Virus genome (UHGV): UHGV-0383738
Strand: one strand, 5' to 3'
Origin: a virus
Length of the DNA: 43,241 bases
Shown: piece by piece, positions 3,115 to 30,129 of the stretch
Position numbering within the stretch: position 1 is the stretch's first letter
How the letters are laid out: each line of letters starts with the position of its first letter
Notes under the pieces: model-generated
The model's input: the letters and a program-made list of their open reading frames with translations, nothing else
What the model was told of the DNA's origin: nothing
The model's database searches: none
Translations under genes and position numbers: made by a program

Positions 3115-3279
3115 AACAAAACCGGCTCCTGCGCCAACAGGAACCGGCCCACATACCCGAAGATATGCACTATAATTCGCACCTATATTGTACCATCTTC
3201 GGGGCGGCTTTGCAAGATATTTGCGGAGCTGTATTTTTTATACCCATTTTAGGGAAATCAATTGAAGGAGGAAAGAGAA

Positions 3280-4353
3280 ATGACAAAGAAAGCCCCGAAA
3301 AAGAAAATAGGAGAACTACCGTCTGGAAATGTCCGAGTACAGTTATATTTATATACGGACGAAAAAGGCAAGCGGCATTACAAAAGCTTTGTTGCCGCGT
3401 CACGCAAGGAAGCAAAGGAAATGGCTACCCGATGGAAATTAGATATGAAAGATAAGCCCATAGAGCAATACAATGAACTGGATGAGGACGAGGACGAAGA
3501 TATTACAGTCAATGATGCTATTGAACGCTATTTGAACGTCAAGAGCGGCGTTTTAAGCCCTTCTACGCTTAGAGGGTACACTGGTATGAAAAGACAGTAT
3601 TTCGGCGGCGCATTTGGTCAAAAAAAGCTTTCAGAACTGACAAGTCCATCTGTGCAAATATGGGTAAGTAATTTAGCTGCGAAAAAACTATCTCCAAAGA
3701 CGGTAAGAAATGCCTATGGTCTGTTATCTCCAACACTGGAAATGTTTGCACCCGAATTAACTTTAAACGTTAAACTGCCGCAGAAAAAACGTCCTAACTT
3801 ATATTGCCCCAATGACAATGATATTAAAAAGTTGCTGGACGCTATTAAAGGCACTGATTTGGAGATAGCTGTATTATTGGCTGCGTTTGGTCCACTTAGG
3901 AGAGGGGAGATAAGCGCTCTAACTGATAAGGACGTGGATGAAAAAATTATCCATGTAAGAGATAATATGGTCAAGGGGCCAGACAATCAATGGTACATCA
4001 AACAGCCTAAAACGGATGACAGTGCCCGGGACGTAGAAATGCCAGCATTTGTAATTGACCGGATATCTGAAAAAAAAGGAAAATTGGTTGACATGAACCC
4101 GGATTACATCACACACAGATTCGGACGGGTACTCAAAAAGATTGATATACCCCATTTCCGCTTTCACGACCTCCGGCATTATGCTGCATCCATTATGCAC
4201 GCCATAGGGATACCGGACCAATATATTTTGCAGCGGGGAGGATGGGCCAGCGATAATATCATGAAAACTGTATATAGAAATGCAATTGACTCTGAAACCG
4301 TCCGGCAAAATAAAAAAATTAATAAGCACTTTGAGAAATTGAACAGTATGTAA
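3280..4353 (+). CDS. int: Tyrosine site-specific integrase (the ORF-track TTG at 3262 is probably not the real start; ATG at 3280 sits behind AGGAGG).
   Basis: C-terminal catalytic motifs HDLRHY...GGW...VYRN (R-H-R-Y tyrosine recombinase signature), N-terminal SAM-like domain, and position next to attP. Confidence 0.9.
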   Translation: MTKKAPKKKIGELPSGNVRVQLYLYTDEKGKRHYKSFVAASRKEAKEMATRWKLDMKDKPIEQYNELDEDEDEDITVNDAIERYLNVKSGVLSPSTLRGYTGMKRQYFGGAFGQKKLSELTSPSVQIWVSNLAAKKLSPKTVRNAYGLLSPTLEMFAPELTLNVKLPQKKRPNLYCPNDNDIKKLLDAIKGTDLEIAVLLAAFGPLRRGEISALTDKDVDEKIIHVRDNMVKGPDNQWYIKQPKTDDSARDVEMPAFVIDRISEKKGKLVDMNPDYITHRFGRVLKKIDIPHFRFHDLRHYAASIMHAIGIPDQYILQRGGWASDNIMKTVYRNAIDSETVRQNKKINKHFEKLNSM

Positions 4354-8563: not shown

Positions 8564-9000
8564 AGCTTAATACCTCTATTTCCTAGAACTTTGGTTCCCA
8601 ATTTAAACGACAAATGCTGAGGACCAGGATAGGACTTTTCAATCAAATTACCTAAATCATAAATGATTTTTTCTATGGCATTGGCCTGATAAATTGATGT
8701 GTATGTTATCTTATCTGGGGTAAGGGGAGTGCTATCGCCTGTATAGTACGCGTTTCTTATTGCAACTATATTTTTTCTTAGACGTTCCATTTCTTTATCC
8801 GTCCTATGGTCCTCAGGTTTCCAATTCAGCTTGTTGTTTGTCGTATTTCTATATCCATACTGATTGAGAACATAAGATACCCATTTAATCGCCTGTTCGA
8901 TTCGGTTTAGGTCTTTATAATCAATGTAAGCTTTGTCAGTTAATTCTATTATGTCTGACTGCGTACGGTCAAAAATAAGAGATTCTAAATACTTACTCAT
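8560..9000 (-). CDS. Hypothetical tail/baseplate protein.
   Basis: ORF-track entry on the late strand, tightly packed. Confidence 0.45.
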   Translation of the reverse strand: MSKYLESLIFDRTQSDIIELTDKAYIDYKDLNRIEQAIKWVSYVLNQYGYRNTTNNKLNWKPEDHRTDKEMERLRKNIVAIRNAYYTGDSTPLTPDKITYTSIYQANAIEKIIYDLGNLIEKSYPGPQHLSFKLGTKVLGNRGIKL

Positions 9001-10855
9001 GTATTTTTACCTCTGCCTTAATTTCGTTGGGAGAAAAGCTGTAATTGTAGCTCTCAATAATACCAGTGCGGTATCCATCATAATCTGTATCAATCCTAAC
9101 CTTCTGTCCTAGTTTTTTATTTCCTATAAGTACATCCCCCACCACATTTTCTGCGCGCTGGTAATATGCATATACGCGTTCAAGCACTTGCTGAGCATTA
9201 CCATTGTGCACCAACGTTGCATCTGTTACTTCACGAATATTTTTGTTAAACACAATATCAGGATTCTCTTTAAGGATTGATGTTGTAAGATGGTTGTATT
9301 TCTTTCCGGTTAGTATTACATTTCCACCGGTTCCGGTTATGTAAGCATAGTTATCACCAGACTGACCAATGGTGCCGCCAGTTATCTCCAGACCATGATA
9401 AGGCTCACTAAAAATAACCTCTGCTGTTCCATTCAAAGTATCATTATATAGTTCTTGCGCCTCATCCGATTTTTGATATGTATGAACTGTTAGCCGGATT
9501 CCTGTGACAATATCAGAATGCTCCAATGTAACCCCAGAAAATACTTCATCATTCAAAAATTCACCACTCAAAGCATTTTCTTGCGGATAGATAACAATTC
9601 CGTCATAATTGCTTGTATCTGCAATAGCTCCAATAGCAAAGCATATGTATACTAATGCGTTTCTCTTTGTGGTATACGGTATGTAACCATAAAGCGGAAT
9701 ATCTGAAAATGATTCATCCAACAAATAATTAAAATCTTCATTCTCAAATATTTTCTCTAATATCTCAGAAACCGGCTGGCCTGTATATATTCCTCCAACA
9801 AATTCATTACCATCCAATACCCCCACCGCATCATGCGCGTCCATATGGTAATCCGTTTTGTTTTTCCTGGCACCGTTTTTAAGATAAAAATTTCCTATCA
9901 ACTCACCGTTGAAATATAAAGTAAGTTTCTGCTTTTTCTGTAAATCAAACGGTATATCGGATGTTGTCCTGACCGTGAAATTCAAGGTGTTAATACTTAT
10001 GCTTTCTGATATTGCATTGATTTCTTGCAAACAGTTTCTTTCCAATAATTCGTTGTCCAGAAAATCACGGTATATTCCATAATCTATTCTGGTAACAAAT
10101 ACTGGCCTTATGGGTTTTGATGTCTGCAAAAACGTGATTTCAAGTTTATTATATCCTCTCACATAGTTATTACAAAAATATCGCACTGATTCCGGGGAAA
10201 ACTCCATATCTGACAATAGGTTATTATCCGCGTACCACTTTACTCTCATTCGTGTGCAATAATCTCCAGACATCATATTAAAAGTAAAAAGCAGTCCTAC
10301 ACTGGTGAATTTTTGATTAAAGGTTACTGTCAGCATGGGGGATTCAATTAACTTTTCAGTTGTTGATTTAGGATATAAAAACATTCCTGGATGCAAACCC
10401 ATTTGGGGCTTAAGTCCTTGGCTTTGCTTAACATATTCGAACAATCCTTGTTCATTTGATACTTCTGGGCTTATATATCCATACGGAAGCGGATTATCTG
10501 GAAAATTGATATACTTTCCATTCAGCAGAGAAAACCGTGGAAAGCATAGAGCATATCCAGGATAAGAAATATCATCTCGCTTTAATTCTGGAAATTCCTG
10601 CTCTGTTATTGTCCCACGCGGATGTAAACCAGGGCCTGGACGAAGTCCTATTCTCGGTCTTAATCCAGGTCTTGTAATGGATGCTGTACTATTTTCTTTG
10701 GCATAAGGGGCCAAGTCATCATAAACAATCTTTAATCCCTCAGTATTCTGTTCTGCATCAGATAATATGGATTGCTTTAAAAACACATCACGGCCTCCTC
10801 TGCGGCTCCATAGCGGTAAAGGTAATGGATAACCCGGTCCAATGGTTACGCTCAC
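8993..10855 (-). CDS. Tail-associated protein (Tal-like, baseplate hub/host-interaction). The real start is probably internal to the 620-aa ORF.
   Basis: Large beta-rich protein directly after the Dit-like gene. Its first 68 nt overlap 10788..11198 in another frame. Confidence 0.55.
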   Translation of the reverse strand: MSVTIGPGYPLPLPLWSRRGGRDVFLKQSILSDAEQNTEGLKIVYDDLAPYAKENSTASITRPGLRPRIGLRPGPGLHPRGTITEQEFPELKRDDISYPGYALCFPRFSLLNGKYINFPDNPLPYGYISPEVSNEQGLFEYVKQSQGLKPQMGLHPGMFLYPKSTTEKLIESPMLTVTFNQKFTSVGLLFTFNMMSGDYCTRMRVKWYADNNLLSDMEFSPESVRYFCNNYVRGYNKLEITFLQTSKPIRPVFVTRIDYGIYRDFLDNELLERNCLQEINAISESISINTLNFTVRTTSDIPFDLQKKQKLTLYFNGELIGNFYLKNGARKNKTDYHMDAHDAVGVLDGNEFVGGIYTGQPVSEILEKIFENEDFNYLLDESFSDIPLYGYIPYTTKRNALVYICFAIGAIADTSNYDGIVIYPQENALSGEFLNDEVFSGVTLEHSDIVTGIRLTVHTYQKSDEAQELYNDTLNGTAEVIFSEPYHGLEITGGTIGQSGDNYAYITGTGGNVILTGKKYNHLTTSILKENPDIVFNKNIREVTDATLVHNGNAQQVLERVYAYYQRAENVVGDVLIGNKKLGQKVRIDTDYDGYRTGIIESYNYSFSPNEIKAEVKIHE

Positions 10856-16767: not shown

Positions 16768-17031
16768 TTATTTATTCATCTGCTTATACATCTGGTTAAC
16801 CCCCGTAGCCGCCAGACCAGACACAGCGCCTACCGCTACAGCCGTGATATAGTCAGTTGCCGGGAAATCTGGTATGGTTCCCATTCCAAGCGCGCCCAAA
16901 GCGCCACCCACTACAGCCATAATGACCGGAATCCATTCGTCCGGTATCTTCTTTGCCGCTTTGCATCCAAGACCAACCACATAGCTCAGAGTCACAATAG
17001 CTACACATGTTCCCAATGTTGTGATGTCCAT
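16768..17031 (-). CDS. Small 3-TM membrane protein, holin-like (87 aa).
   Basis: Three predicted TM segments (LGTCVAIVTLSYVVGLG, WIPVIMAVVGGALGALGMG, YITAVAVGAVSGLAATGV) and a charged C-terminus. Its location inside the connector block is unusual. Confidence 0.4.
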   Translation of the reverse strand: MDITTLGTCVAIVTLSYVVGLGCKAAKKIPDEWIPVIMAVVGGALGALGMGTIPDFPATDYITAVAVGAVSGLAATGVNQMYKQMNK

Positions 17032-19790: not shown

Positions 19791-19832
19791 AAGAAAAAGC
19801 CAAACAAACTACATTGCTGTAATCTGTTTGGC
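19791..19832 (-). terminator. Rho-independent terminator on the minus strand (GCCAAACA-N18-TGTTTGGC then UUUUUCUU).
   Basis: 8-bp stem plus a U-run in the minus-strand RNA, downstream of the KTR-domain gene. Confidence 0.55.
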
Positions 19833-19854
19833 TCTGCGTCTGGCGTCTGGCTCT
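19830..19854 (-). promoter_or_regulatory. Conserved late-operon element copy B (minus-strand AGAGCCAGACGCCAGACGCAGAGCC).
   Basis: Near-identical to 15269-15294. It starts 4 nt after the stop of 19859..20110. Confidence 0.45.
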
Positions 19855-19858
19855 AAAG

Positions 19859-20110
19859 TTATTTTGCAGGTGATAAACCACTTTTGTCTAAATCATTTGC
19901 TTTTCCTTTTGCAATATTCATTATGGATGTATTCTTGCATACAGGGCAAAATACGGGGAGGTTTTTCGCAACCGTATCTAGTCGTATTTTAGTCCGGGTT
20001 TTATTGTTACATATAGGGCAGTACACCCAACTGTCTTTTACCATGTTTTCACCCTTTCTGCTTATTCCTACTCCCATTTTACCGTATTCCCAGAAAATAA
20101 TCGTCCCCAC
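19859..20110 (-). CDS. Cysteine-rich KTR-domain zinc-ribbon protein (83 aa).
   Basis: CPICNNKTRTKIRLDTVAKNLPVFCPVCKN matches the Cys-rich KTR motif. Confidence 0.6.
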   Translation of the reverse strand: MGTIIFWEYGKMGVGISRKGENMVKDSWVYCPICNNKTRTKIRLDTVAKNLPVFCPVCKNTSIMNIAKGKANDLDKSGLSPAK

Positions 20111-20125
20111 ATTTTAAATATACCA

Positions 20126-20154
20126 TTGACTTTACGCCCTTTTGGGCGTATAAT
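20126..20154 (+). promoter_or_regulatory. Strong sigma-A promoter (TTGACT, 17-nt spacer, TATAAT) whose spacer is the palindrome ACGCCCTTTTGGGCGT.
   Basis: Seen directly. It drives the plus-strand three-gene cassette and is antisense to the late operon. Confidence 0.65.
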
Positions 20155-20186
20155 ATAATCAGTGATAAAGAAAGGGGATAAAAACA

Positions 20187-20516
20187 ATGACAGTAGCCGA
20201 GTTAAAAGAAATGATAGATAGCAACGATTGGGATATTAAATATAGTAGGTTTGGAATCCGCATTCAGGAACAGCCCTTTGAACTCGGCGCTATGGACCAC
20301 AATTCAAAGGTATGGATTGACGAAGAGGAAACCGATGAAGAGCTTAACGGTGTATGTGCCATTGATTTAAACTCTCCCGAAGCCGCCGAAGCTCTTAATG
20401 GTAATGGATATTTTGGTTCCTACATTGCCTTGATTGCAAGCGATAGTTACGAGTACGGTTTTGATGCAGGTGAAGTTATTTTAAAAGATGCAGAAGTATT
20501 GTTTATCATAAAATGA
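20187..20516 (+). CDS. Acidic small protein (109 aa), possibly immunity/antitoxin-like.
   Basis: RBS AAAGGGGA. First gene of the moron cassette. No domain recognised. Confidence 0.55.
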   Translation: MTVAELKEMIDSNDWDIKYSRFGIRIQEQPFELGAMDHNSKVWIDEEETDEELNGVCAIDLNSPEAAEALNGNGYFGSYIALIASDSYEYGFDAGEVILKDAEVLFIIK

Positions 20517-20806
20517 TGGAGGAAATCATGAGAAGATACCCAGACTGTATCAGGACTGATGGACTATGCGGGGCCTGCTCCGCATCCAGTTATGGCAGGG
20601 ATTGCCATAACAATAATATCAATAAACTGTTGTATCAACGTTCCCTATCCGGGATGACCCAGCAGCAGGTGGCCGACTCTGCGGGAATAAATATCCGCCA
20701 GATACAAAAATTTGAATCCGGAGAAAGGGACCTTGGCAACATGACCCTGCGTAATGCCTTGTCATTGGCAAAAGCCCTTGACTGTGAGGTGAATGATTTA
20801 ATATAG
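20513..20806 (+). CDS. XRE-family HTH regulator with an unusual N-terminal Cys cluster (C..C..C...C).
   Basis: C-terminal HTH_3 (LSGMTQQQVADSAGINIRQIQKFESGERDLGNMTLRNALSLAKAL). The N-terminus is CIRTDGLCGACSASSYGRDCH. Confidence 0.6.
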   Translation: MMEEIMRRYPDCIRTDGLCGACSASSYGRDCHNNNINKLLYQRSLSGMTQQQVADSAGINIRQIQKFESGERDLGNMTLRNALSLAKALDCEVNDLI

Positions 20807-20814
20807 GAGATAGT

Positions 20815-21300
20815 ATGGCACCAAAAAAAGATATATCGGGACAAACATATGGATATCTTAAGGCAATTAGGTGTACCGGAGATAAGAAGAACGGGAGCTA
20901 TTTGTGGGAATTCGAATGCATACTATGCGGAAAGCATATTATAAGGCGTATTGGTCTGGTCACTGGTGGAGAAATTATTTCATGCGGTTGCTATAAAGCC
21001 AGAAATCTTAAAAACAAGCCATTGTCCGATAAGGTCGGTCAAGTTTTAGGGACAAACATATCCCGTATTACCTCTAAAAAGCCCCAGTCAAATACATCGT
21101 CCGGGCATAGAGGAGTATCTTTGCATCGCCAGCAAGGTAAATCAGATACTTGGATTGCTTACATATACTTTCAAGGAAAACGCTTTTATCTTGGGAGCTT
21201 TGCAGACAAACAAGAAGCTATTAAAGCGCGTGAAACTGCCGAAAATCAGATATTTGGAGATTTTTTAAAATGGTACAATAAGCGAAAAAGCAAAAAGTGA
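20815..21300 (+). CDS. Zinc-ribbon + AP2-domain DNA-binding protein (161 aa).
   Basis: AP2 signature GHRGVSLHRQQGKSDTWIAYIYFQGKRFYLGSFADKQEAIKARE. The N-terminus is CILCGK...SCGCYKARN. Confidence 0.65.
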   Translation: MAPKKDISGQTYGYLKAIRCTGDKKNGSYLWEFECILCGKHIIRRIGLVTGGEIISCGCYKARNLKNKPLSDKVGQVLGTNISRITSKKPQSNTSSGHRGVSLHRQQGKSDTWIAYIYFQGKRFYLGSFADKQEAIKARETAENQIFGDFLKWYNKRKSKK

Positions 21301-21317: not shown

Positions 21318-21348
21318 TTAAAAAGGCGGTAGGACTTTTCCCACCGCC
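21318..21348. terminator. Bidirectional terminator hairpin (GGCGGTAGG/CCCACCGCC) between convergent genes.
   Basis: 9-bp stem (1 mismatch) with an A-run on one side and a T-run on the other. It sits between the stop of 20815..21300 and the stop of 21355..21894. Confidence 0.55.
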
Positions 21349-21354
21349 AATTTA

Positions 21355-21894
21355 TTACATCATATTACGAAGCTTTTCAATATACCTTTTCATGGTTTCT
21401 CTTTCTTCCCGGCAGTCAGCATCTTTGGACATTTCTCCTAATTCTTCTGTCAGTTCGTCCATATGCTCTTCCAAGGCTGCAAGCATACGCCGCTTACAAT
21501 CTTCATCTTTTCCGCCGTTTCTGTAGCTCTGCTTCTGGTTCATGTAGTCATCATAGGCCGGTCCAGTGGCGCGACTGTAATGACCTCTGACGTAATGCTT
21601 TCCACGTGTGCCGCGATATGAGCTGTCATTATCATAGTCCTGCGACATTCCGTCAGCACGGCTATAACGTCCCATGCTGTCGCGCTTGCGGCGCGCTTCG
21701 CTGTATTCTCCGCCGTCCATTTCATCCATTACCTGATTGTAGTACTCTTCTTTGCACTTCCAGTACTCCACATTCTCCATGTCTTTCCACATGTCAATCA
21801 GTTTGTATGCGTTTTCAAGGTTGCTGGTGTTCAGGCCCTTCTCCGCAATATTGTCCAGCTCTTCGTGGATTTTTTGCATTAATTTATAACTCAT
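21355..21894 (-). CDS. Hypothetical protein with an Arg/Tyr/Gly-rich low-complexity centre (179 aa).
   Basis: ORF-track entry. Last gene of the cargo island. Confidence 0.55.
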   Translation of the reverse strand: MSYKLMQKIHEELDNIAEKGLNTSNLENAYKLIDMWKDMENVEYWKCKEEYYNQVMDEMDGGEYSEARRKRDSMGRYSRADGMSQDYDNDSSYRGTRGKHYVRGHYSRATGPAYDDYMNQKQSYRNGGKDEDCKRRMLAALEEHMDELTEELGEMSKDADCREERETMKRYIEKLRNMM

Positions 21895-21906
21895 AGCCTT
21901 ACCTCC

Positions 21907-22305
21907 TTAACCTATTCTGCTAACTACAAGGTTAGCGTCTGATACTGTCGCCGCTGCGGTTCCAACGTTTTTCACCGACAGTGTAGCGCAACATGGTTTG
22001 CATACTCGTACTTCTACAGTTGCGGAACCATTGATTGTTGCGCCAGCGGCAACTGTGTTCTGGATTCTTGCACCGGGAATGCCTTCGCCGTCCTGCTGTA
22101 TTTCAAAAATTACATCTCCTGCCGCAGCTGCGGAAAAGTTTCCGTTAAATCCTACACGGTACAGGCCAGGAAGTAAAACTACTCTCCCAGAAAGCGGCTC
22201 ATGTCTTATATTTGGACAATTGCAAGAATATATCCGATTTGCTGCAAACAAAACACTTGCATTGACTTCAACGGTCTGTGTGCCAGCAGTTACAAAATCT
22301 GCCAT
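21907..22305 (-). CDS. BclA-C-terminal/C1q-TNF-like jelly-roll domain protein (132 aa).
   Basis: Resembles the C-terminal domain of exosporium BclA/BclB-type proteins (PNIRHEPLSGRVVLLPGLYRVGFNGNFSA...IFEIQQDGEGIPGARI). The assignment comes from my memory of the family, not a search. Confidence 0.4.
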   Translation of the reverse strand: MADFVTAGTQTVEVNASVLFAANRIYSCNCPNIRHEPLSGRVVLLPGLYRVGFNGNFSAAAAGDVIFEIQQDGEGIPGARIQNTVAAGATINGSATVEVRVCKPCCATLSVKNVGTAAATVSDANLVVSRIG

Positions 22306-22370
22306 AATAATTCCTCCTTATATGCACAGAAGGGCAAGCCTGTGCCTACCCCTCCATGTGTGTAATACTA

Positions 22371-22607
22371 CTATTCAGTAGACATGTCCTTTTCGGACAA
22401 GATACGCAATATGCGGTTGTTTTGGTAGATAATCTTTTCCATGTATTCTTTATTTTGCTGTTGAAGCGCCTCCATAATATCATTATTAGAAGCTTCTCCC
22501 AAAAGCAAAAACACATCAATCATTTGTAATGCTGCTGCATATAAAGCAAGATTATCGTAAAACTGTTCGTTTCGAGTTAGCATCCGCATCCAGCATTGCA
22601 CCCACAA
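22371..22607 (-). CDS. Hypothetical small protein (78 aa).
   Basis: ORF-track entry. It overlaps the upstream gene by 31 nt. Confidence 0.35.
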   Translation of the reverse strand: MWVQCWMRMLTRNEQFYDNLALYAAALQMIDVFLLLGEASNNDIMEALQQQNKEYMEKIIYQNNRILRILSEKDMSTE

Positions 22608-23278
22608 TTAGATGCATATGGATATGGCGCCGGTACTGTATAAGCCGGTACAGGCTGCGGCTGACGAAGCTGGGCAACGATTGAGTTACCAACCGCATCA
22701 ATAAAACCATTCTGGGAAGTCTGACTTGCCTGGAACCTAAGTGTCTGATTCTCTGCCTGTAAAGTGGAAATCTTATCTTGGGTTAAGAAGTCAAGAATAG
22801 CTCTTGTGTTGCTATTGTTATTGTCCAGAATATCTCTGGTTGCAGTCTGAATGGTATTTCTGGTATCACATGACTGTGTAGCCAGATTGTAGTTTACGCC
22901 GTCAATTGCGCGCTGTGTCTGGCAGCAGCAATCCTGGAGCTGATAGCCCATCTGGCATAAGCTCCGGTCAACACCATTGAATCCGCTAGTAATAGTGTTG
23001 TTCAGTGCGTATGTGCTGTCACAGATACCCTGCTGGATACCTCTAATTCCGTTTTCTATACCATTCAAAGCAAAGCCCTCATTGATATCTGCTCTGGTTG
23101 CAAGACCCTGGAGTCCTGCGCCATTTGCACCGTTTCCGCCAAAGCCATTGCCCCAGCCTCCACCAGCAAATAGAAAGAGAACGATAATCCAAATCCAGTC
23201 GCCCCACATACCGTCACCATTTCTGTTATTGTTTCCTGTAGCGGCTGCAATGTCCGCTAAAGAGTAACCACTTTCCAT
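22577..23278 (-). CDS. Gly/Asn-rich membrane protein with Cys clusters (CCCQ, C-terminal NCGCNAGCGC).
   Basis: One TM helix (WIWIIVLFLFAGGGW), GNGxG repeats, and a Cys-rich tail. Confidence 0.5.
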   Translation of the reverse strand: MESGYSLADIAAATGNNNRNGDGMWGDWIWIIVLFLFAGGGWGNGFGGNGANGAGLQGLATRADINEGFALNGIENGIRGIQQGICDSTYALNNTITSGFNGVDRSLCQMGYQLQDCCCQTQRAIDGVNYNLATQSCDTRNTIQTATRDILDNNNSNTRAILDFLTQDKISTLQAENQTLRFQASQTSQNGFIDAVGNSIVAQLRQPQPVPAYTVPAPYPYASNCGCNAGCGC

Positions 23279-23332
23279 AAATATTTACTCCTTTAAAATT
23301 TATTTACAAAATCATGCGCATTGATTTGTGTA

Positions 23333-23581
23333 CTATTTTTTCATGCCCCCAAGCATCTGCTGAAACTGCTGGGCCATCTGTTGTGCCTGGTCTAACTGCT
23401 GCTGAGTTATCTGCCCAGACTGTAGCATCTTCTGCACTTCTTCCTGGGGATTCCCTTTGAAGTTGTTCTTAAATTCCATAAACTTCTGAATCATCTGCAT
23501 TGGGTTGTTTCCCCCGCCCATTCCAGGCATCATGCCGCCCATTGGTGAGCCGCCGCCCAACATGCTAAATAATGGATTCAT
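23333..23581 (-). CDS. Gly/Met/Gln-rich low-complexity small protein (82 aa).
   Basis: MNPLFSMLGGGSPMGGMMPGMGGGNNPMQM...QQLDQAQQMAQQFQQMLGG. Confidence 0.45.
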   Translation of the reverse strand: MNPLFSMLGGGSPMGGMMPGMGGGNNPMQMIQKFMEFKNNFKGNPQEEVQKMLQSGQITQQQLDQAQQMAQQFQQMLGGMKK

Positions 23582-23584
23582 ATA

Positions 23585-24055
23585 TTATTTCCCCTTTCCG
23601 CTTGGCGCTGTGCTGGATTCTAAAAGGCCATATAATTCATCATATTTTGCCTTTAAATCCTGATACTCGTTTCTGGTAACATACTTTTCATCCAGATTTT
23701 CAGTCGGTGCAATTTCCTTCTTCTGACCATTTACAATCTCTTTATATTCAAAAGTGCGGAGTGTTGGCATCCCTGCCGCATCGGTTGTCTTAATATAAAA
23801 ATACTCATTTTCGCTGTCCATCAGCAATATGGATGTGCTGGGCGCTACTAAATACGACTTTGCCCCGGCCTCACCCTGCACCCATAATATTCCCTGGTTG
23901 GTCTGCGGGACCTGTGGAACCTGCGTCTGTTGCGGCATCTGGTATGGTGCCTGTAGCTGCTGCAATCGGTCCATAGGTGGTTGCATCTGTGGTTGATATG
24001 GGTATGCGTTTGGATATGTATTCAGATAGTTTGGATTGATAAATGGTTGCGGCAT
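23585..24055 (-). CDS. Protein with a Pro/Gln/Tyr-rich N-terminus and a globular C domain (156 aa).
   Basis: PYQPQMQPP...QMPQQTQVPQVPQ followed by GILWVQGEAGAKSYLVAPSTSILLMDSENEYFYIKT. Confidence 0.5.
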   Translation of the reverse strand: MPQPFINPNYLNTYPNAYPYQPQMQPPMDRLQQLQAPYQMPQQTQVPQVPQTNQGILWVQGEAGAKSYLVAPSTSILLMDSENEYFYIKTTDAAGMPTLRTFEYKEIVNGQKKEIAPTENLDEKYVTRNEYQDLKAKYDELYGLLESSTAPSGKGK

Positions 24056-24147
24056 TAAATCCCCTCCGTTCTTTTATAATCCAATTATCCCATAAAAAAT
24101 AAGCCTCTGACAGTTCGTCAAAGACTTATAAAAGTATCATGCAAGTA

Positions 24148-24348
24148 TCAGCATACTCTAATTATTTTATTGTTGACTTTTCGGCTCAATCTCTTGGCTG
24201 TGGATACACTTACATTCATTAGTTCAGCGCAATATTCCAAAGGATAATTTTTAGCCCGGTACTCAAACAGCGCCCGTTCTTCATCCGTAAAGTTACAATA
24301 TGTACGAAAATAATTTAGTTCTGGCACTGTAAAGTCATATACCTTCAA
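24148..24348 (-). CDS. Sigma-70 region-4-like HTH mini-protein (66 aa).
   Basis: FTDEERALFEYRAKNYPLEYCAELMNVSVSTAKRLSRKV resembles region 4.2 of ECF/phage sigma factors and ArpU/RinA-type activators. Confidence 0.5.
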   Translation of the reverse strand: MKVYDFTVPELNYFRTYCNFTDEERALFEYRAKNYPLEYCAELMNVSVSTAKRLSRKVNNKIIRVC

Positions 24349-24359
24349 AGCAACGCTCC

Positions 24360-24653
24360 TTAAATACCCTCTGACAAATGCTTTATCATAGCTTCTTTGG
24401 TTTTTTTTAAACCCTCTATGTTGTTACCGGTTATACGATTATCAATTAATGCTATCATTCCCTGGCATAAAAGAGATTGCATATCTCTTATTTCTTGGAT
24501 AGATTTATAATCCTTTTCCACATTTATTTCTAATTTATCCACTCTGTTTTTTAGCTTAAATGCCGGGTGAAACAATTTATATATTACGGTTCCTGCTCCT
24601 CCAAGAGTAATAAGCCAACCGCATACAACCATAATAGAGTTTAATGTTTCCAT
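24360..24653 (-). CDS. Small membrane protein with an N-terminal TM helix and coiled coil (97 aa).
   Basis: IMVVCGWLITLGGAGTVIY TM segment followed by a charged helical region. Confidence 0.45.
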   Translation of the reverse strand: METLNSIMVVCGWLITLGGAGTVIYKLFHPAFKLKNRVDKLEINVEKDYKSIQEIRDMQSLLCQGMIALIDNRITGNNIEGLKKTKEAMIKHLSEGI

Positions 24654-24656
24654 AAG

Positions 24657-25046
24657 TTATCGCCTTTCCCAGTAGTATATTGGTATTTCTTGACCGCTGT
24701 CCCATGTGTCCCAGTAAAATCCGTCCACAACCGTTACCACATGACCATCAATCCCAAGAACAAACACTCCGTTTTGGTGGTCTGCCGAAAATTCTTCCAC
24801 GGTATAATCTTCTGGATATTCGTCTGGTATAATGTTTCTCCGAAACCCGTTGCGCCTGAGATATGTCCCCCACACGCTGTTAGCTGACGGCATATCTGAT
24901 TTCTCGCACGCCACCACCATAACGCCAGCAAAGGCGGTTTCCCAATCCTGTCCGGTTGCTTTGCAAATTGCACGTATGGCACAGTCGCCTACACGCTGAT
25001 TACGGACTGGGTTAGGGTTATATGGTTTCCATCTATTCAAATTCAT
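24657..25046 (-). CDS. Papain/transglutaminase-like Cys-His protein (129 aa).
   Basis: GDCAIRAICKATG (G-x-C-x-x-x-A catalytic-Cys context) and a downstream GHVVTVVDGFYWDTWD (His, Asp). ATGA-coupled to the minor head gene. Confidence 0.4.
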   Translation of the reverse strand: MNLNRWKPYNPNPVRNQRVGDCAIRAICKATGQDWETAFAGVMVVACEKSDMPSANSVWGTYLRRNGFRRNIIPDEYPEDYTVEEFSADHQNGVFVLGIDGHVVTVVDGFYWDTWDSGQEIPIYYWERR

Positions 25047-27819: not shown

Positions 27820-28041
27820 TCACCTGTATTTTGCACAATTTTCAATGTAGCTCAAGGGCAACAATACCGATTGTTCCCTTAATATCTGTCTCTGCAATCC
27901 TTTAGGTGTATAGACGCAGTTTGATGTTAGTTCATTTATTCCTTGCCGTATAACGCATTCCTCTGTGTATGAATGACCAGGGGAAATATCAACATGCTTT
28001 TCCAAAAATTGTCCTATTCGTTTTTTGCTATATTCTGTCAT
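27820..28041 (-). CDS. Hypothetical small protein between terminase and portal (73 aa).
   Basis: ATGA-coupled to the terminase stop. Confidence 0.45.
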   Translation of the reverse strand: MTEYSKKRIGQFLEKHVDISPGHSYTEECVIRQGINELTSNCVYTPKGLQRQILREQSVLLPLSYIENCAKYR

Positions 28042-28868
28042 GCACTGTTCCCCCTTCTCATTGATAATGGGCTTGTGGCATAGCGGAGTGCATCAATCCA
28101 GTGGTCATTTCCGTCTGGGTAATCCGAAATCACCTCACCGTTGCTGTCTACCTCATGCTCATATTCTATGATTTCCTTGTATGCTCGCGGTGTACGCGCC
28201 GGGTCTATAACGATTGTACGGCATTGCAACCATTCAAATGTATATTTTCTGCTTCCAGGTCCAGCAGATGCATCCCTGGCCGGAAGTCCCGCATCTCGAA
28301 AATCTATAACAAATTCATCATCATCCAATCCGCAGTATATCATATAGTCATCGTATCCAGCTTTTTTGATTTGTTTTGCCATTTCTTTTACTCGGATTTT
28401 GCATCCTCCCAATTCGTCTAATAAGATAATTTTTTCTTTGTTTGGCACATAAGCTGCACGAATAAATGCTTTAGGGTCAGGCCACCATCCCCAGTCCTGC
28501 CCTTGATATATGCTTTCGTATTTCTGTATTTCTTCATCCGTGATTGGTCTAATCTCCAGCATATCAAATATATTTGTACCAAGTCCAACCGGCAAGCCTA
28601 AATACTCGTGGTTGTATGCCCGCTCATTAGTGGCTTTAAGATGTTCAGCGCGCTCAATAAACATTTCCCCCAGCCATTCTGCCGGAACAGAACGGTAATC
28701 GCTTTTATGCCTGTATGCGCTGTCATCCGGCGTATTTACATACTGATTCGCCCAGTTGCTTTGACTGATAGGCGGATTAAAGGATTTAAATACAACAAAC
28801 TTGCTGCCACCACGCAATACTGACTGTTCAACAGTTCGTATTTCATCCGGTCCTGCAAATTCGTCCAG
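28038..28868 (-). CDS. terL: Terminase large subunit, C-terminal part (exon 2: remainder of the ATPase plus the RNaseH-like nuclease domain). The ORF-track TTG at 28817 is internal.
   Basis: The frame is open upstream to 28883. The translation reads ...L DEFAGPDEIRTVEQSVLRGGSKFVVFKSFNP... and later GNDHWIDALRYA (terminase nuclease motif). The DEF completes the Walker B LWL|DEF that is split from exon 1. Confidence 0.75.
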   Translation of the reverse strand: MDEFAGPDEIRTVEQSVLRGGSKFVVFKSFNPPISQSNWANQYVNTPDDSAYRHKSDYRSVPAEWLGEMFIERAEHLKATNERAYNHEYLGLPVGLGTNIFDMLEIRPITDEEIQKYESIYQGQDWGWWPDPKAFIRAAYVPNKEKIILLDELGGCKIRVKEMAKQIKKAGYDDYMIYCGLDDDEFVIDFRDAGLPARDASAGPGSRKYTFEWLQCRTIVIDPARTPRAYKEIIEYEHEVDSNGEVISDYPDGNDHWIDALRYATSPLSMRRGNSA

Positions 28869-29724
28869 TTCTTCACAATTTTGTTACGCATATACCGTTT
28901 CCGTATACACTCACCATATTACTATGGTGTTCAGACTATATCATGTAAATGGAATCTGTTACCAATTCCACTCACCCCACTTTTTCAACCTCACTCGAGG
29001 CTTACTCTACTCGTTCTCAGTTATAGATTTCTCTATAACCTACCTTTCGATAGTCGTTGCACATTATTATTCGACATTCTTATAGCTTTTTCTTCTTACG
29101 CATTTATCAATTACAGAAGGACTTACATTATATTTTTTTGCTAGAGCGTTCATTCCAAACTCTTTATCATGTCCCTTATAAATTCTGCGAATTTCTCTCA
29201 CTTCATCTTCGCTCAAAACATGATTCCCTTGTAAATATCCTCGAACTGGCTTTTTTAAGCCATTTGCATAAGCATGCTGCATTTGCTCCTCGCGGGTAGC
29301 CCATTCTAAATTGTCTGCGTTGTTATTGGATTTATCTCCATCAATGTGATTAACTGTAGGTTTATTTTCTGGGTTATTAACAAAAGCCTCAGCCACAAGC
29401 CTATTTGCTCGCTTTGTGTACTGTTTGCCATTCATGCACAAGTTGTACCATACATAACCATCATGCGATACTCTTTGCTTTAAAATGACTTCTCGGCCAT
29501 GCTTATGGCTTTTTACCCTTCCTGTATTGCTAATCTCATAGTCCTCAAACCCTTTAATAATTCTCCAAATTTCTTTCATGGTATTTTCTCCTTAAATTCG
29601 TTTATTATATTGTACCATAAAAGATGAATTTATTAAATATTATGTCGAATAATCTTTGCTCAGGATTGTCCTATTTTGTAGGAGTTTCCCTGAATTTAAT
29701 GGGTTTAACGTGGTCAGAAGTGTT
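28869..29724 (-). mobile_element. Probable group I intron (about 0.85 kb) carrying an HNH homing-endonuclease ORF, inserted in terL between the LWL and DEF codons.
   Basis: terL is interrupted exactly inside the Walker B motif. The intervening region encodes an HNH_3/NUMOD protein with its own RBS. The predicted 3' end is G immediately before the exon-2 DEF codons. The boundaries are approximate. Confidence 0.55.
29067..29579 (-). CDS. HNH homing endonuclease (NUMOD4-like N-terminus + HNH_3).
   Basis: YEISNTGRVKS ... NHIDGDKSNNNADNLEWATREEQ. RBS AAGGAG. Confidence 0.85.
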   Translation of the reverse strand: MKEIWRIIKGFEDYEISNTGRVKSHKHGREVILKQRVSHDGYVWYNLCMNGKQYTKRANRLVAEAFVNNPENKPTVNHIDGDKSNNNADNLEWATREEQMQHAYANGLKKPVRGYLQGNHVLSEDEVREIRRIYKGHDKEFGMNALAKKYNVSPSVIDKCVRRKSYKNVE

Positions 29725-30129
29725 TAACCACAAATATTTGAAGTATCCCTTACTAGCTTTAATTGACTTTGTTTTCTTTGCCTTGTCAAGTCCACGGAAT
29801 ATTATCTTTTGTCCTGTCGGCTTATAAACAAATCGGTATGGGCTTGTACGGGATTCCCATAATTCCGTTACTCCCAGTGCATCTATGGCCCATTGTATCT
29901 GCTCAAATACTGATTCCCCAATTGTAACAGCGTACTTTCGGAATATAACAGCATTGGACTCTGGGTCATCCATTATTCCCAGTACGATTTCCCCGGATAT
30001 AAAAGAGGACTTCGCGGAACCTCGCCCACCATACAGGTCATAATATGTATGGTTTCCTTCCAGGATATCCCAGTGAACACCATAGAATGAAGGGGCGATT
30101 ACATCAGTCAGATTTATTATGTCACTCAT
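29671..30129 (-). CDS. terL: Terminase large subunit, N-terminal ATPase part (exon 1). The true coding sequence probably ends near 29725; the last ~17 codons are intron read-through.
   Basis: Walker A YGGRGSAKS. It ends ...KGYFKYLWL then NTSDHVKPIKFRETPTK*. Confidence 0.8.
   Translation of the reverse strand: MSDIINLTDVIAPSFYGVHWDILEGNHTYYDLYGGRGSAKSSFISGEIVLGIMDDPESNAVIFRKYAVTIGESVFEQIQWAIDALGVTELWESRTSPYRFVYKPTGQKIIFRGLDKAKKTKSIKASKGYFKYLWLNTSDHVKPIKFRETPTK

Follow-up and report, generated by a model that had tools for sequence, protein, structure and literature searches.

The window analyzed here, a stretch of 43,241 nucleotides from the UHGV virus genome UHGV-0383738, is a temperate siphophage-type prophage whose late genes are on the minus strand. 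Between the gene for a MuF-type minor head protein and the scaffold gene, it carries an island (21355-25046, minus strand) that ends at a strong terminator. The first-pass annotation had described this island as nine co-directional genes that are cargo rather than part of core head assembly. We found that the island represents one copy of an accessory cassette that is autonomous and is passed horizontally between tailed phages of gut Clostridia. Its cargo-like nature was borne out. The survey of related loci, made with one hidden Markov model (HMM) per gene family, took in 80 loci from viruses, 80 from genomes and several annotated phages, and the cassette counts given below refer to the 123 loci flanked by at least 2 kb on either side.

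Genes and control signals of the island

Eight open reading frames (ORFs), numbered g1 to g8 in order of transcription, were located on the minus strand where they had been annotated. The ninth, which had not been listed, is probably c9, a small helical ORF of ~70 to 78 amino acids (22371-22607, minus strand) between g6 and g7. c9 fills an apparent 271-bp gap between the genes for the 233- and 132-amino-acid proteins, and its ATG overlaps the g6 stop codon. It is an accessory member conserved in 30 of the 123 cassettes, and its match to the Pfam family DAM-like-phage2 ("Phage DNA adenine methylase-like domain 2") is marginal, at 27.1 bits for a cut-off of 27.

The five genes from g4 to g8 form the core of the cassette. 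Residue counts confirmed the unusual compositions that had been noted for the products of 156, 82, 233 and 179 amino acids. In g4 (156 amino acids; 23585-24055, minus strand), residues 1 to 54 are 26% Gln and 22% Pro, and Gln, Pro and Tyr make up 57% of the N terminus. In an alignment of 14 diverse members, this Pro/Gln/Tyr-rich N terminus is followed by a small beta-rich domain, which is conserved, and by a helix at the C terminus. g5 (82 amino acids; 23333-23581, minus strand) is rich in Met, Gly and Gln, with 30% Gly and 27% Met in residues 1 to 30, i.e., 57% for both. It aligns with a variant denoted c20 around an invariant Pro (P45), the Gly preceding it being at least 90% conserved. g8 (179 amino acids; 21355-21894, minus strand) has helical ends and a middle part rich in Arg, Tyr, Gly, Ser and Asp, in which residues 66 to 128 are 16% Arg, 13% Gly and 13% Tyr (42% together). 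g4 is present in 121 of the 123 cassettes, and the g5 and g8 slots are occupied in 120 and 118, respectively. The g8 slot holds a variant with the Pfam domain DUF7841, c46, in 40 of the 118; hhalign comparison of g8 with c46 was not significant, and a possible ferritin-like nature of the g8-slot protein of locus L002 found no Pfam support. Searches of Pfam, NCBIfam and PDB sequences with g4, g5, g6, g8 and c30, a protein described below, returned only noise. The sole matches of the four core proteins were to function-unassigned PHROG families, namely phrog_21718 for g4 (E 1e-47), phrog_22984 for g5 (E 3e-22), phrog_16490 for g6 (E 5e-61) and phrog_28802 for g8 (E 2e-71).

g6 (233 amino acids; 22577-23278, minus strand) is the membrane protein of the core. 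Its features are a single hydrophobic helix, a stretch that is 50% Gly, and 10 Cys residues, including a CCC motif and the C-terminal CGCNAGCGC. It also contains a Gly/aromatic-rich stretch, a helical Asn/Gln-rich domain with invariant Cys residues that include the CCC motif, and a conserved coiled-coil motif. The C-terminal part consists of a Pro-rich segment followed by a Cys-Gly cluster, with an invariant terminal Cys. All members aligned are Gly-rich. Neither g6 nor g4 matched a PDB profile. Its relatives in public metagenomes amount to more than 7995 clusters at 90% identity, and neither a functional name nor a Pfam domain is attached to any of those listed. A search of 185,579 species genomes and 72,556 plasmids gave no cellular non-phage homologue of g6; the one plasmid match is on a Vescimonas megaplasmid, and every homologue whose surroundings were examined lies in a phage or prophage context.

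g7 (132 amino acids; 21907-22305, minus strand) is a stand-alone core protein for which a BclA-C/C1q-TNF-like fold had been proposed. Its AlphaFold2 model, computed for the monomer with a predicted local distance difference test score of 87, is an all-beta jelly roll with strands from residue 2 onwards. In Foldseek searches of the PDB, the best match was to the C-terminal domain of F-BclA (9h38; E 1.3e-8, template-modeling [TM] score 0.75). BxpB (8d02), BclA (1wck) and ExsFA (7r5i) followed, and then EDA and 4-1BBL, which are TNF-family ligands. Matches to exosporium proteins at E values of 1e-8 thus support the proposed fold. The fold also matches phage fiber and spike knobs, including the phi812 spike knob and cyanophage fiber tips; it is typical of phage and giant-virus fiber tips, and many phage collagen/C1q fiber proteins carry it. 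g7 itself did not match the Pfam family BclA_C (PF18573) at E values up to 10, but 10 of 18 homologues with 61 to 95% identity did (best E 1.5e-7), and two have precomputed PF18573 matches. The g7 family comprises 514 representatives at 50% identity; almost all of the best 150 are stand-alone proteins of 130 to 145 amino acids, and relatives are occasionally auto-annotated as "BclA protein".

The proteins of the Bacillus cereus group to which g7 is closest, BclA, BxpB, ExsFA and F-BclA, share its jelly roll with Foldseek E values of 1e-8 to 1e-6 and TM scores of 0.7 to 0.79, and BxpB and ExsFA are small stand-alone domains like g7. Unlike this group, g7 has no GXX collagen-like repeats and no exosporium-targeting or other attachment domain at the N terminus of its 132 residues, and identity is only 14 to 21%. 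Furthermore, g7 is phage-borne, belongs to a fixed cassette with a membrane protein, and is also found in a phage of a non-sporulating host. We know of no counterpart in BclA of its conserved PCC motif. In 45 cassettes the g7 slot is taken by c30, an unrelated Cys-rich protein that did not align significantly with g7 in hhalign. This is the case in a close relative, an Enterocloster hominis prophage (L090), in which a member of the 133- to 145-amino-acid c30 family (8993-9430) replaces g7 and the rest of the cassette is ~84% identical at the DNA level.

Three accessory genes precede the core. The first, g1 (129 amino acids; 24657-25046, minus strand), has a start codon that overlaps the stop codon of the minor head gene as ATGA, in agreement with the translational coupling described earlier. 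C22, at the start of a helix (residues 22 to 31), and D113, in a strand (residues 110 to 113), are invariant, and H102, in a strand spanning residues 102 to 107, is at least 90% conserved. A fold search with the predicted structure gave Josephin, C39, UFSP and ATG4-type enzymes as fold neighbors. The papain-like Cys-His fold that had been read from the sequence was therefore upheld by these conserved residues and neighbors. On the basis of the model, g1 is predicted to be a peptidase with a papain-like (clan CA) Cys-His-Asp fold, and its relatives are occasionally auto-annotated as "endopeptidase". No Pfam or NCBIfam peptidase family, Peptidase_C39 and C39_2 included, matched g1 at E values up to 1. 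A match to 8pjs, a designed Kelch-repeat SAKe protein (E 3.7e-8), was rejected as the sum of five weak repeats, and the C39-like (C39_2) endolysin of bajarodcaudo virus 5, considered as a possible long form, was rejected as a relative of g1 by hhalign (probability 0.1). The closest systems that we can name are the clan CA enzymes that cut after Gly-Gly, i.e., C39 bacteriocin-processing domains, the Josephin/JOS "clippases", staphopains and AvrPphB, from which g1 differs as a minimal domain without a transporter, ubiquitin-binding or wall-binding partner. g1 is present in 56% of the cassettes.

The second gene, g2 (97 amino acids; 24360-24653, minus strand), codes for an N-terminal transmembrane helix, with a maximum hydropathy of 1.85 over residues 6 to 24, and a charged helical tail. 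Its slot is variable. Close relatives have non-homologous DNA there, and at several other loci the slot holds XhlA-like "hemolysin" proteins of phrog_937. A small ORF with a single transmembrane segment and a charged tail was found at most 2.6 kb upstream in 95 of 133 loci, and the g2 HMM from the cassette matches an ORF of Butyrivibrio virus Ceridwen situated just upstream of the holin and endolysin genes. No holin family was matched by g2 among Pfam and PHROG profiles. That g2 might be the missing holin of the phage was rejected, as a Phage_holin_5_2 gene is present at 16768-17031. hhalign comparisons of g2 with its possible counterparts c17, c19, c29 and c75 were not significant, and these proteins, as well as c30 and c46, are for that reason treated as positional equivalents.

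The third gene, g3 (24148-24348, minus strand), codes for a 66-amino-acid protein, probably a helix-turn-helix (HTH) protein of the sigma-70 region-4 type and the presumed regulator of the cassette. Its match to Pfam Sigma70_r4_2 (E 0.011, 15.8 bits) is below the cut-off of 25.7 bits, and its match to phrog_1190, "RNA polymerase sigma factor" (E 9.5e-6), involves only the C-terminal 46 profile positions. The positional equivalents of g3 at two other loci (L053 and L002) do pass the Pfam Sigma70_r4 cut-off, with 25.7 and 26.7 bits. The annotated similarity to region 4 is retained, although the match in the window is weak. Sigma region 2, responsible for core binding and -10 recognition, is absent from the protein. 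With 66 residues and region 4 only, g3 is too short for a sigma factor and is regarded as an HTH protein. Of the 123 cassettes, 91 (74%) contain such an HTH protein.

Between g3 and g4, a terminator-like hairpin with a T-run overlaps a promoter-like extended -10 element (24084-24129, minus strand). A consensus scan and direct reading placed the extended -10, TGgGATAAT, before g4 and after the hairpin, which spans 24129-24099; the candidate promoter lies at ~24084-24113. The intrinsic terminator that closes the cassette (21325-21348, minus strand) is clear, with a 10-bp stem including 7 GC pairs, a 4-nucleotide loop and a TTTTT tail; the strong terminator reported at the end of the island is thus real.

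Distribution and exchange of the cassette

The survey showed the island to be a self-contained cassette, which phages of gut Clostridia carry very often. The core genes follow the order g4, g5 or c20, g6, g7 or c30, and g8 or c46. The full core was found in 115 of the 123 loci, always collinear and on one strand. At its 5′ end are the accessories, namely the g1 peptidase, a small membrane or coiled-coil protein of the g2 or XhlA type, and the HTH protein. Two bitopic membrane proteins per cassette, g6 together with g2 or a phrog_937 protein, are usual, even far from lysis genes.

The cassette occupies at least three kinds of sites. It lies between the MuF and scaffold genes in the window, in Dulem virus 35, in loci L006 to L036 and in many IMG/VR contigs. 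In a second group (L003 to L005, L053, bajarodcaudo virus 5), it follows the holin and endolysin genes at the end of the prophage, beside the integrase or host genes. Thus, in Anaerotruncus colihominis DSM 17241 it stands between a GH25 lysin gene and ruvCAB, and in Ceridwen g1, g4, g5, g6, g7 and g8 come after the endolysin gene. At a third site, in an 85-kb phage (L171), the capsid and connector genes precede it. Most lineages carry the cassette behind the lysis genes, at a distance from those for the head and tail.

Comparison of related phages showed the cassette to be present, absent or relocated, or altered by slot swaps. Cassette DNA is 84 to 99% identical between phages whose large terminase subunit (TerL) or capsid genes do not align. 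Cassettes with 84 to 96% DNA identity flank three types of capsid genes, coding for a 390-amino-acid protein with an Ig-like domain, a 298-amino-acid protein and a 339-amino-acid protein similar to SPP1 gp13. Within the cassette, the g2 and g7 slots are swapped for unrelated DNA in close relatives. AP2/HNH-type endonuclease genes are found inside the cassette in several phages (9382-10245 in Ceridwen, L169; ~9162-9833 on the minus strand in L003 to L005; L039 to L043). Their insertion site is between g7 and g8 in Ceridwen, and elsewhere they are on the opposite strand between g5 or c20 and g6.

Lachnospiraceae and Oscillospiraceae account for most of the assigned hosts. Bins of Agathobacter, Subdoligranulum, Christensenellales, Anaeroplasmatales and Collinsella were also assigned, keeping in mind that the binning of metagenome-assembled genomes (MAGs) can mislead. 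Several of the assigned lineages are not known to sporulate, and neither is Butyrivibrio fibrisolvens. Ceridwen lacks an integrase, lytic growth on B. fibrisolvens DSM 3071 is the only kind observed for it, and the paper reporting its genome lists the cassette genes as hypothetical, without a function (PMC7372960). In its early region, Ceridwen codes for a second putative lysin of the Hydrolase_2 family (L169, 13337-13912), its host being non-sporulating. We take Hydrolase_2 to be the SleB/CwlJ family. In agreement with the earlier view that the arrangement had not been described, we found no published account of the cassette in the literature on gut-phage sporulation genes, DUF7841, BclA/C1q prophages and Ceridwen.

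Genes flanking the island

On the minus strand of the window, the large terminase gene (30129-28038), which is split by an HNH-type ORF, is followed by those for the portal protein (27815-26382) and the MuF-type minor head protein (26275-25043; Phage_min_cap2, E 1.4e-73). Downstream of the island come the scaffold (19591-18980; Phage_scaffold, E 1.6e-28) and major capsid (18980-17808) genes. The island therefore does interrupt the block of head genes, as had been proposed, but the interruption is larger than described. Before the scaffold gene, the gap also holds a plus-strand unit with its own promoter (20187-21300) and a zinc-ribbon gene (19859-20110).

This plus-strand unit (20126-21300) comprises three genes, coding for a 109-amino-acid ORF product, a 97-amino-acid XRE-type HTH protein and a 161-amino-acid AP2-domain protein. 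The unit, which runs toward the island terminator and is present in only some relatives, has a promoter close to the consensus (TTGACT-17-TATAAT at 20126-20154). The zinc-ribbon gene, located on the minus strand just upstream of the scaffold gene, codes for an 83-amino-acid Cys_rich_KTR protein (E 2e-18) and is kept in relatives. After it, a further terminator-like hairpin (19796-19835, minus strand) is present inside the late operon. Together with those at 24099-24129 and 21325-21348, it suggests that late transcription needs read-through or antitermination.

The two TerL ORFs (29671-30129 and 28038-28817, minus strand) are separated by an ORF for a 170-amino-acid HNH/NUMOD-like protein (29067-29579). 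Relatives have an intact TerL of 536 amino acids or other splits, and the HNH ORF was found only in L024 and L030. The split looks like an insertion of the homing-endonuclease or intron type. A second insertion hot spot lies between the portal and minor head genes, where several relatives carry c41, an ORF for 497 to 691 amino acids (3503-4996 in L001; also in L023, L025 and L034).

The holin gene (Phage_holin_5_2, E 4e-22; minus strand) is surrounded by genes for head-tail connectors and is separated by ~11 kb from the endolysin gene (5415-4630, minus strand), which codes for an M15 peptidase with choline-binding repeats. No membrane protein gene adjoins the latter, and Dulem virus 35 is arranged alike. 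The integrase gene is on the plus strand (3262-4353). The major capsid protein has a C-terminal Ig-like domain (S-l_SbsC_C, residues 308 to 388, E 6.5e-16). Close relatives have a 298-amino-acid capsid protein without the Ig-like domain or an unrelated capsid protein similar to SPP1 gp13.

Candidate functions and related systems

The distribution of the cassette indicates that it is probably specific neither to spores nor to the capsid. Our preferred interpretation, which we hold tentatively and at somewhat less than even confidence, is that it is a late module acting on the membrane or envelope of the host, for egress or lysis or for the exclusion of other phages. We favor an action on the envelope because the cassette recurs beside lysis genes and is linked with XhlA-type proteins. 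Its own control signals, i.e., the HTH protein in 74% of the cassettes, the hairpin and extended -10 before g4 and the terminator after g8, are also in line with a separate module.

In such a module, the HTH protein would drive a dedicated promoter before the core, and the core proteins would be produced in bulk late in infection, possibly from the prophage too. The Met/Gln-rich g5 may handle the hydrophobic g6. The latter could then nucleate a cysteine-linked or metal-bound assembly at the cytoplasmic membrane, with a trimeric beta-sandwich and two low-complexity proteins. g1 would trim a Gly-rich partner. The fold neighbors of g1 (Josephin, C39, UFSP and ATG4-type enzymes) mostly cleave behind Gly-Gly or other small residues, and g6, the candidate partner, is Gly-rich in all members. 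The assembly would act on the host envelope, bringing about lysis or egress or keeping out other phages.

Several observations weigh against an envelope function. No homology was found that ties the core proteins to the membrane or the envelope, and PADLOC recognized no known defense family among the eight proteins. Flanking charges do not allow the topology of g6 to be predicted, and the promoter before g4 is a weak match to the consensus (9/12). Known exclusion or lysis functions seldom need five or more genes. Finally, TNF-like domains are typical of phage fiber tips, the cassette is always within and co-directional with the structural or late region, and no signal peptides were read in the sequences of g4, g5, g7 and g8, which fits the assembly of virion parts in the cytoplasm equally well.

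A more specific proposal, which appears possible but rather doubtful, is that the cassette is an unrecognized multi-protein system of gut Clostridia phages that builds, inside the infected cell, a cysteine-linked, membrane-anchored protein structure, serving as an extra step of egress or lysis of Gram-positive anaerobes or as a surface or compartment layer made by the phage and without a described counterpart.

The main rival to an envelope function is an accessory structure of the virion, although we consider it unlikely. The cassette might specify a detachable fiber, whisker or decoration, with a TNF-like knob and a stalk made of Pro/Gln-rich and coiled-coil proteins. Alternatively, its products might be internal or ejected. 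In that case g6 would be a pilot protein that inserts into membranes, and the Met-rich g5 would keep it soluble, since a hydrophobic segment destined for ejection could well need a Met-rich holdase. The last three observations cited against an envelope function speak for this rival, as do the coupling of the cassette to the MuF gene in the window and the occurrence of the g7 fold in the phi812 spike knob, cyanophage fiber tips and collagen/C1q fiber proteins of phages. However, the cassette is exchanged among phages with unrelated capsid, portal and terminase genes and is mostly found after the lysis genes. It usually includes two membrane proteins and its own HTH protein, which virion parts would not need. 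g7 has no N-terminal domain for attachment, being stand-alone in almost all of the best 150 representatives, and an unrelated protein takes its slot in near-identical cassettes. The decoration or cross-linking of capsids, which the first-pass annotation had considered, was not supported. Near-identical cassettes stand beside unrelated capsid genes and mostly far from head genes, and the cassette is not co-inherited with a particular major capsid protein, as a cement protein would be. Its independence of capsid type and position, the two membrane proteins and the dedicated regulator weaken that proposal.

The position of g1 behind the minor head gene raises the very unlikely alternative of a split MuF effector, in which g1, perhaps with g2 as immunity protein, is a detached MuF cargo domain that is packaged and injected with the DNA. 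MuF toxins have variable C-terminal domains, peptidases among them, and a small ORF comes next (PMC5576092). The translation of g1 is coupled to that of the Phage_min_cap2 (MuF2) gene, the identity of g1 follows the MuF allele in several relatives, and phages of Bacillus, Geobacillus and Prevotella have g1 but not the other cassette genes. Nevertheless, post-lysis cassettes (L003 to L005, L087, L088 and Ceridwen) carry g1 with g4 to g8 and without MuF, and no g1-MuF fusion was seen in the loci examined, so that the pattern of MuF polymorphic toxins, which are fused or always adjacent to MuF and accompanied by an immunity ORF, was not found. A split effector would also account for at most two of the nine genes.

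Still less probable is a cytoplasmic organizer, i.e., a membrane-tethered condensate of prion-like, RGG-like and Met-rich proteins for late assembly, or else a Cu/Zn-binding module. The compositions of the core proteins (Gln/Pro/Tyr in g4, Arg/Gly/Tyr in g8, Gly/Met in g5 and the 10 Cys residues of g6) would fit such roles, but low complexity is weak evidence, and no homology to any condensate scaffold or metalloprotein was found.

The least probable explanation is the one initially put forward, that expression in the mother cell of a sporulating lysogen adds coat- or exosporium-like proteins, a cross-linker and a GerE-like regulator to the spore surface. The relationship of g7 in fold to F-BclA, BxpB, BclA and ExsFA had pointed in that direction. 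Likewise, the Cys-rich, Tyr-rich and Arg/Ser/Tyr-rich products recall ExsY/CotY, CdeC and CotG/ExsB, though by composition alone, signal peptides are absent from coat proteins as well, Clostridia able to sporulate are among the hosts in many cases, and the end of a prophage is a typical position for lysogenic-conversion genes. The presence of the complete cassette in Ceridwen, seen only in lytic growth on a host that is not known to sporulate, argues against a role in spores, as do, with the caveat on MAG binning, the assignments to lineages such as Agathobacter, Subdoligranulum, Christensenellales, Anaeroplasmatales and Collinsella. Moreover, apart from the BclA_C matches no Pfam or NCBIfam coat or exosporium family was detected (none of CotY/ExsY, CdeC/CdeM or CotG/ExsB), the g7 fold is equally common in phage fibers, g7 is devoid of the BclA collagen-like region, and g6 has no cellular non-phage homologue in the genomes and plasmids searched.

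Whatever its function, the cassette resembles several known systems in part. Like phage morons and lysogenic-conversion cassettes, which are promoter-gene-terminator units in late operons or between lysin and attR, it lies between conserved late genes or at the end of a prophage, has its own terminator and a candidate promoter, and is present, absent or relocated among relatives. In contrast to morons, the cassette is much larger (5 to 9 genes), keeps its gene order far more strictly, has no known conversion function and is also found in a phage seen only in lytic growth. The small transmembrane or coiled-coil protein and the sigma-related HTH protein 5′ of a cargo-like block recall the XhlA/BhlA-type membrane proteins of lysis modules in Bacillus prophages and the holin-plus-sigma loci for secretion of clostridial toxins and bacteriocins (TcdR/TcdE, UviA/UviB). 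They differ from the cassette, in which the HTH protein has region 4 only, g2 belongs to no holin family, a separate Phage_holin_5_2 gene is present and the cargo is not toxin-like. In the manner of an analogy, the architecture of g6, with an N-terminal anchor, a coiled coil, a Pro-rich segment and a conserved Cys, is reminiscent of the spanins Rz/Rz1 of phages with Gram-negative hosts, and in many phages g6 comes directly after the holin and endolysin genes. In contrast with spanins, g6 is found with single-membrane hosts, shows no sequence similarity to them, has no lipoprotein partner and is accompanied by four extra core genes. A mobile accessory unit in the late region of phages is thus already known, whereas the composition, size, strict order and abundance of this cassette are without a described counterpart.

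The order of the core is kept across phages of Lachnospiraceae, Oscillospiraceae and other gut Firmicutes, and the core must therefore matter to them. Its function is experimentally accessible, as the cassette is carried by the cultured phage Ceridwen and by prophages of cultivable Enterocloster and Anaerotruncus strains. Determining it would annotate thousands of "hypothetical" genes of the gut virome and would reveal which of lysis, exclusion, virion function or host conversion is served by a presumed trimer of the TNF/BclA type together with a minimal papain-like peptidase. If the cassette does encode a multi-protein system that builds a membrane-anchored structure, it would be among the most widespread uncharacterized modules of the human gut virome.

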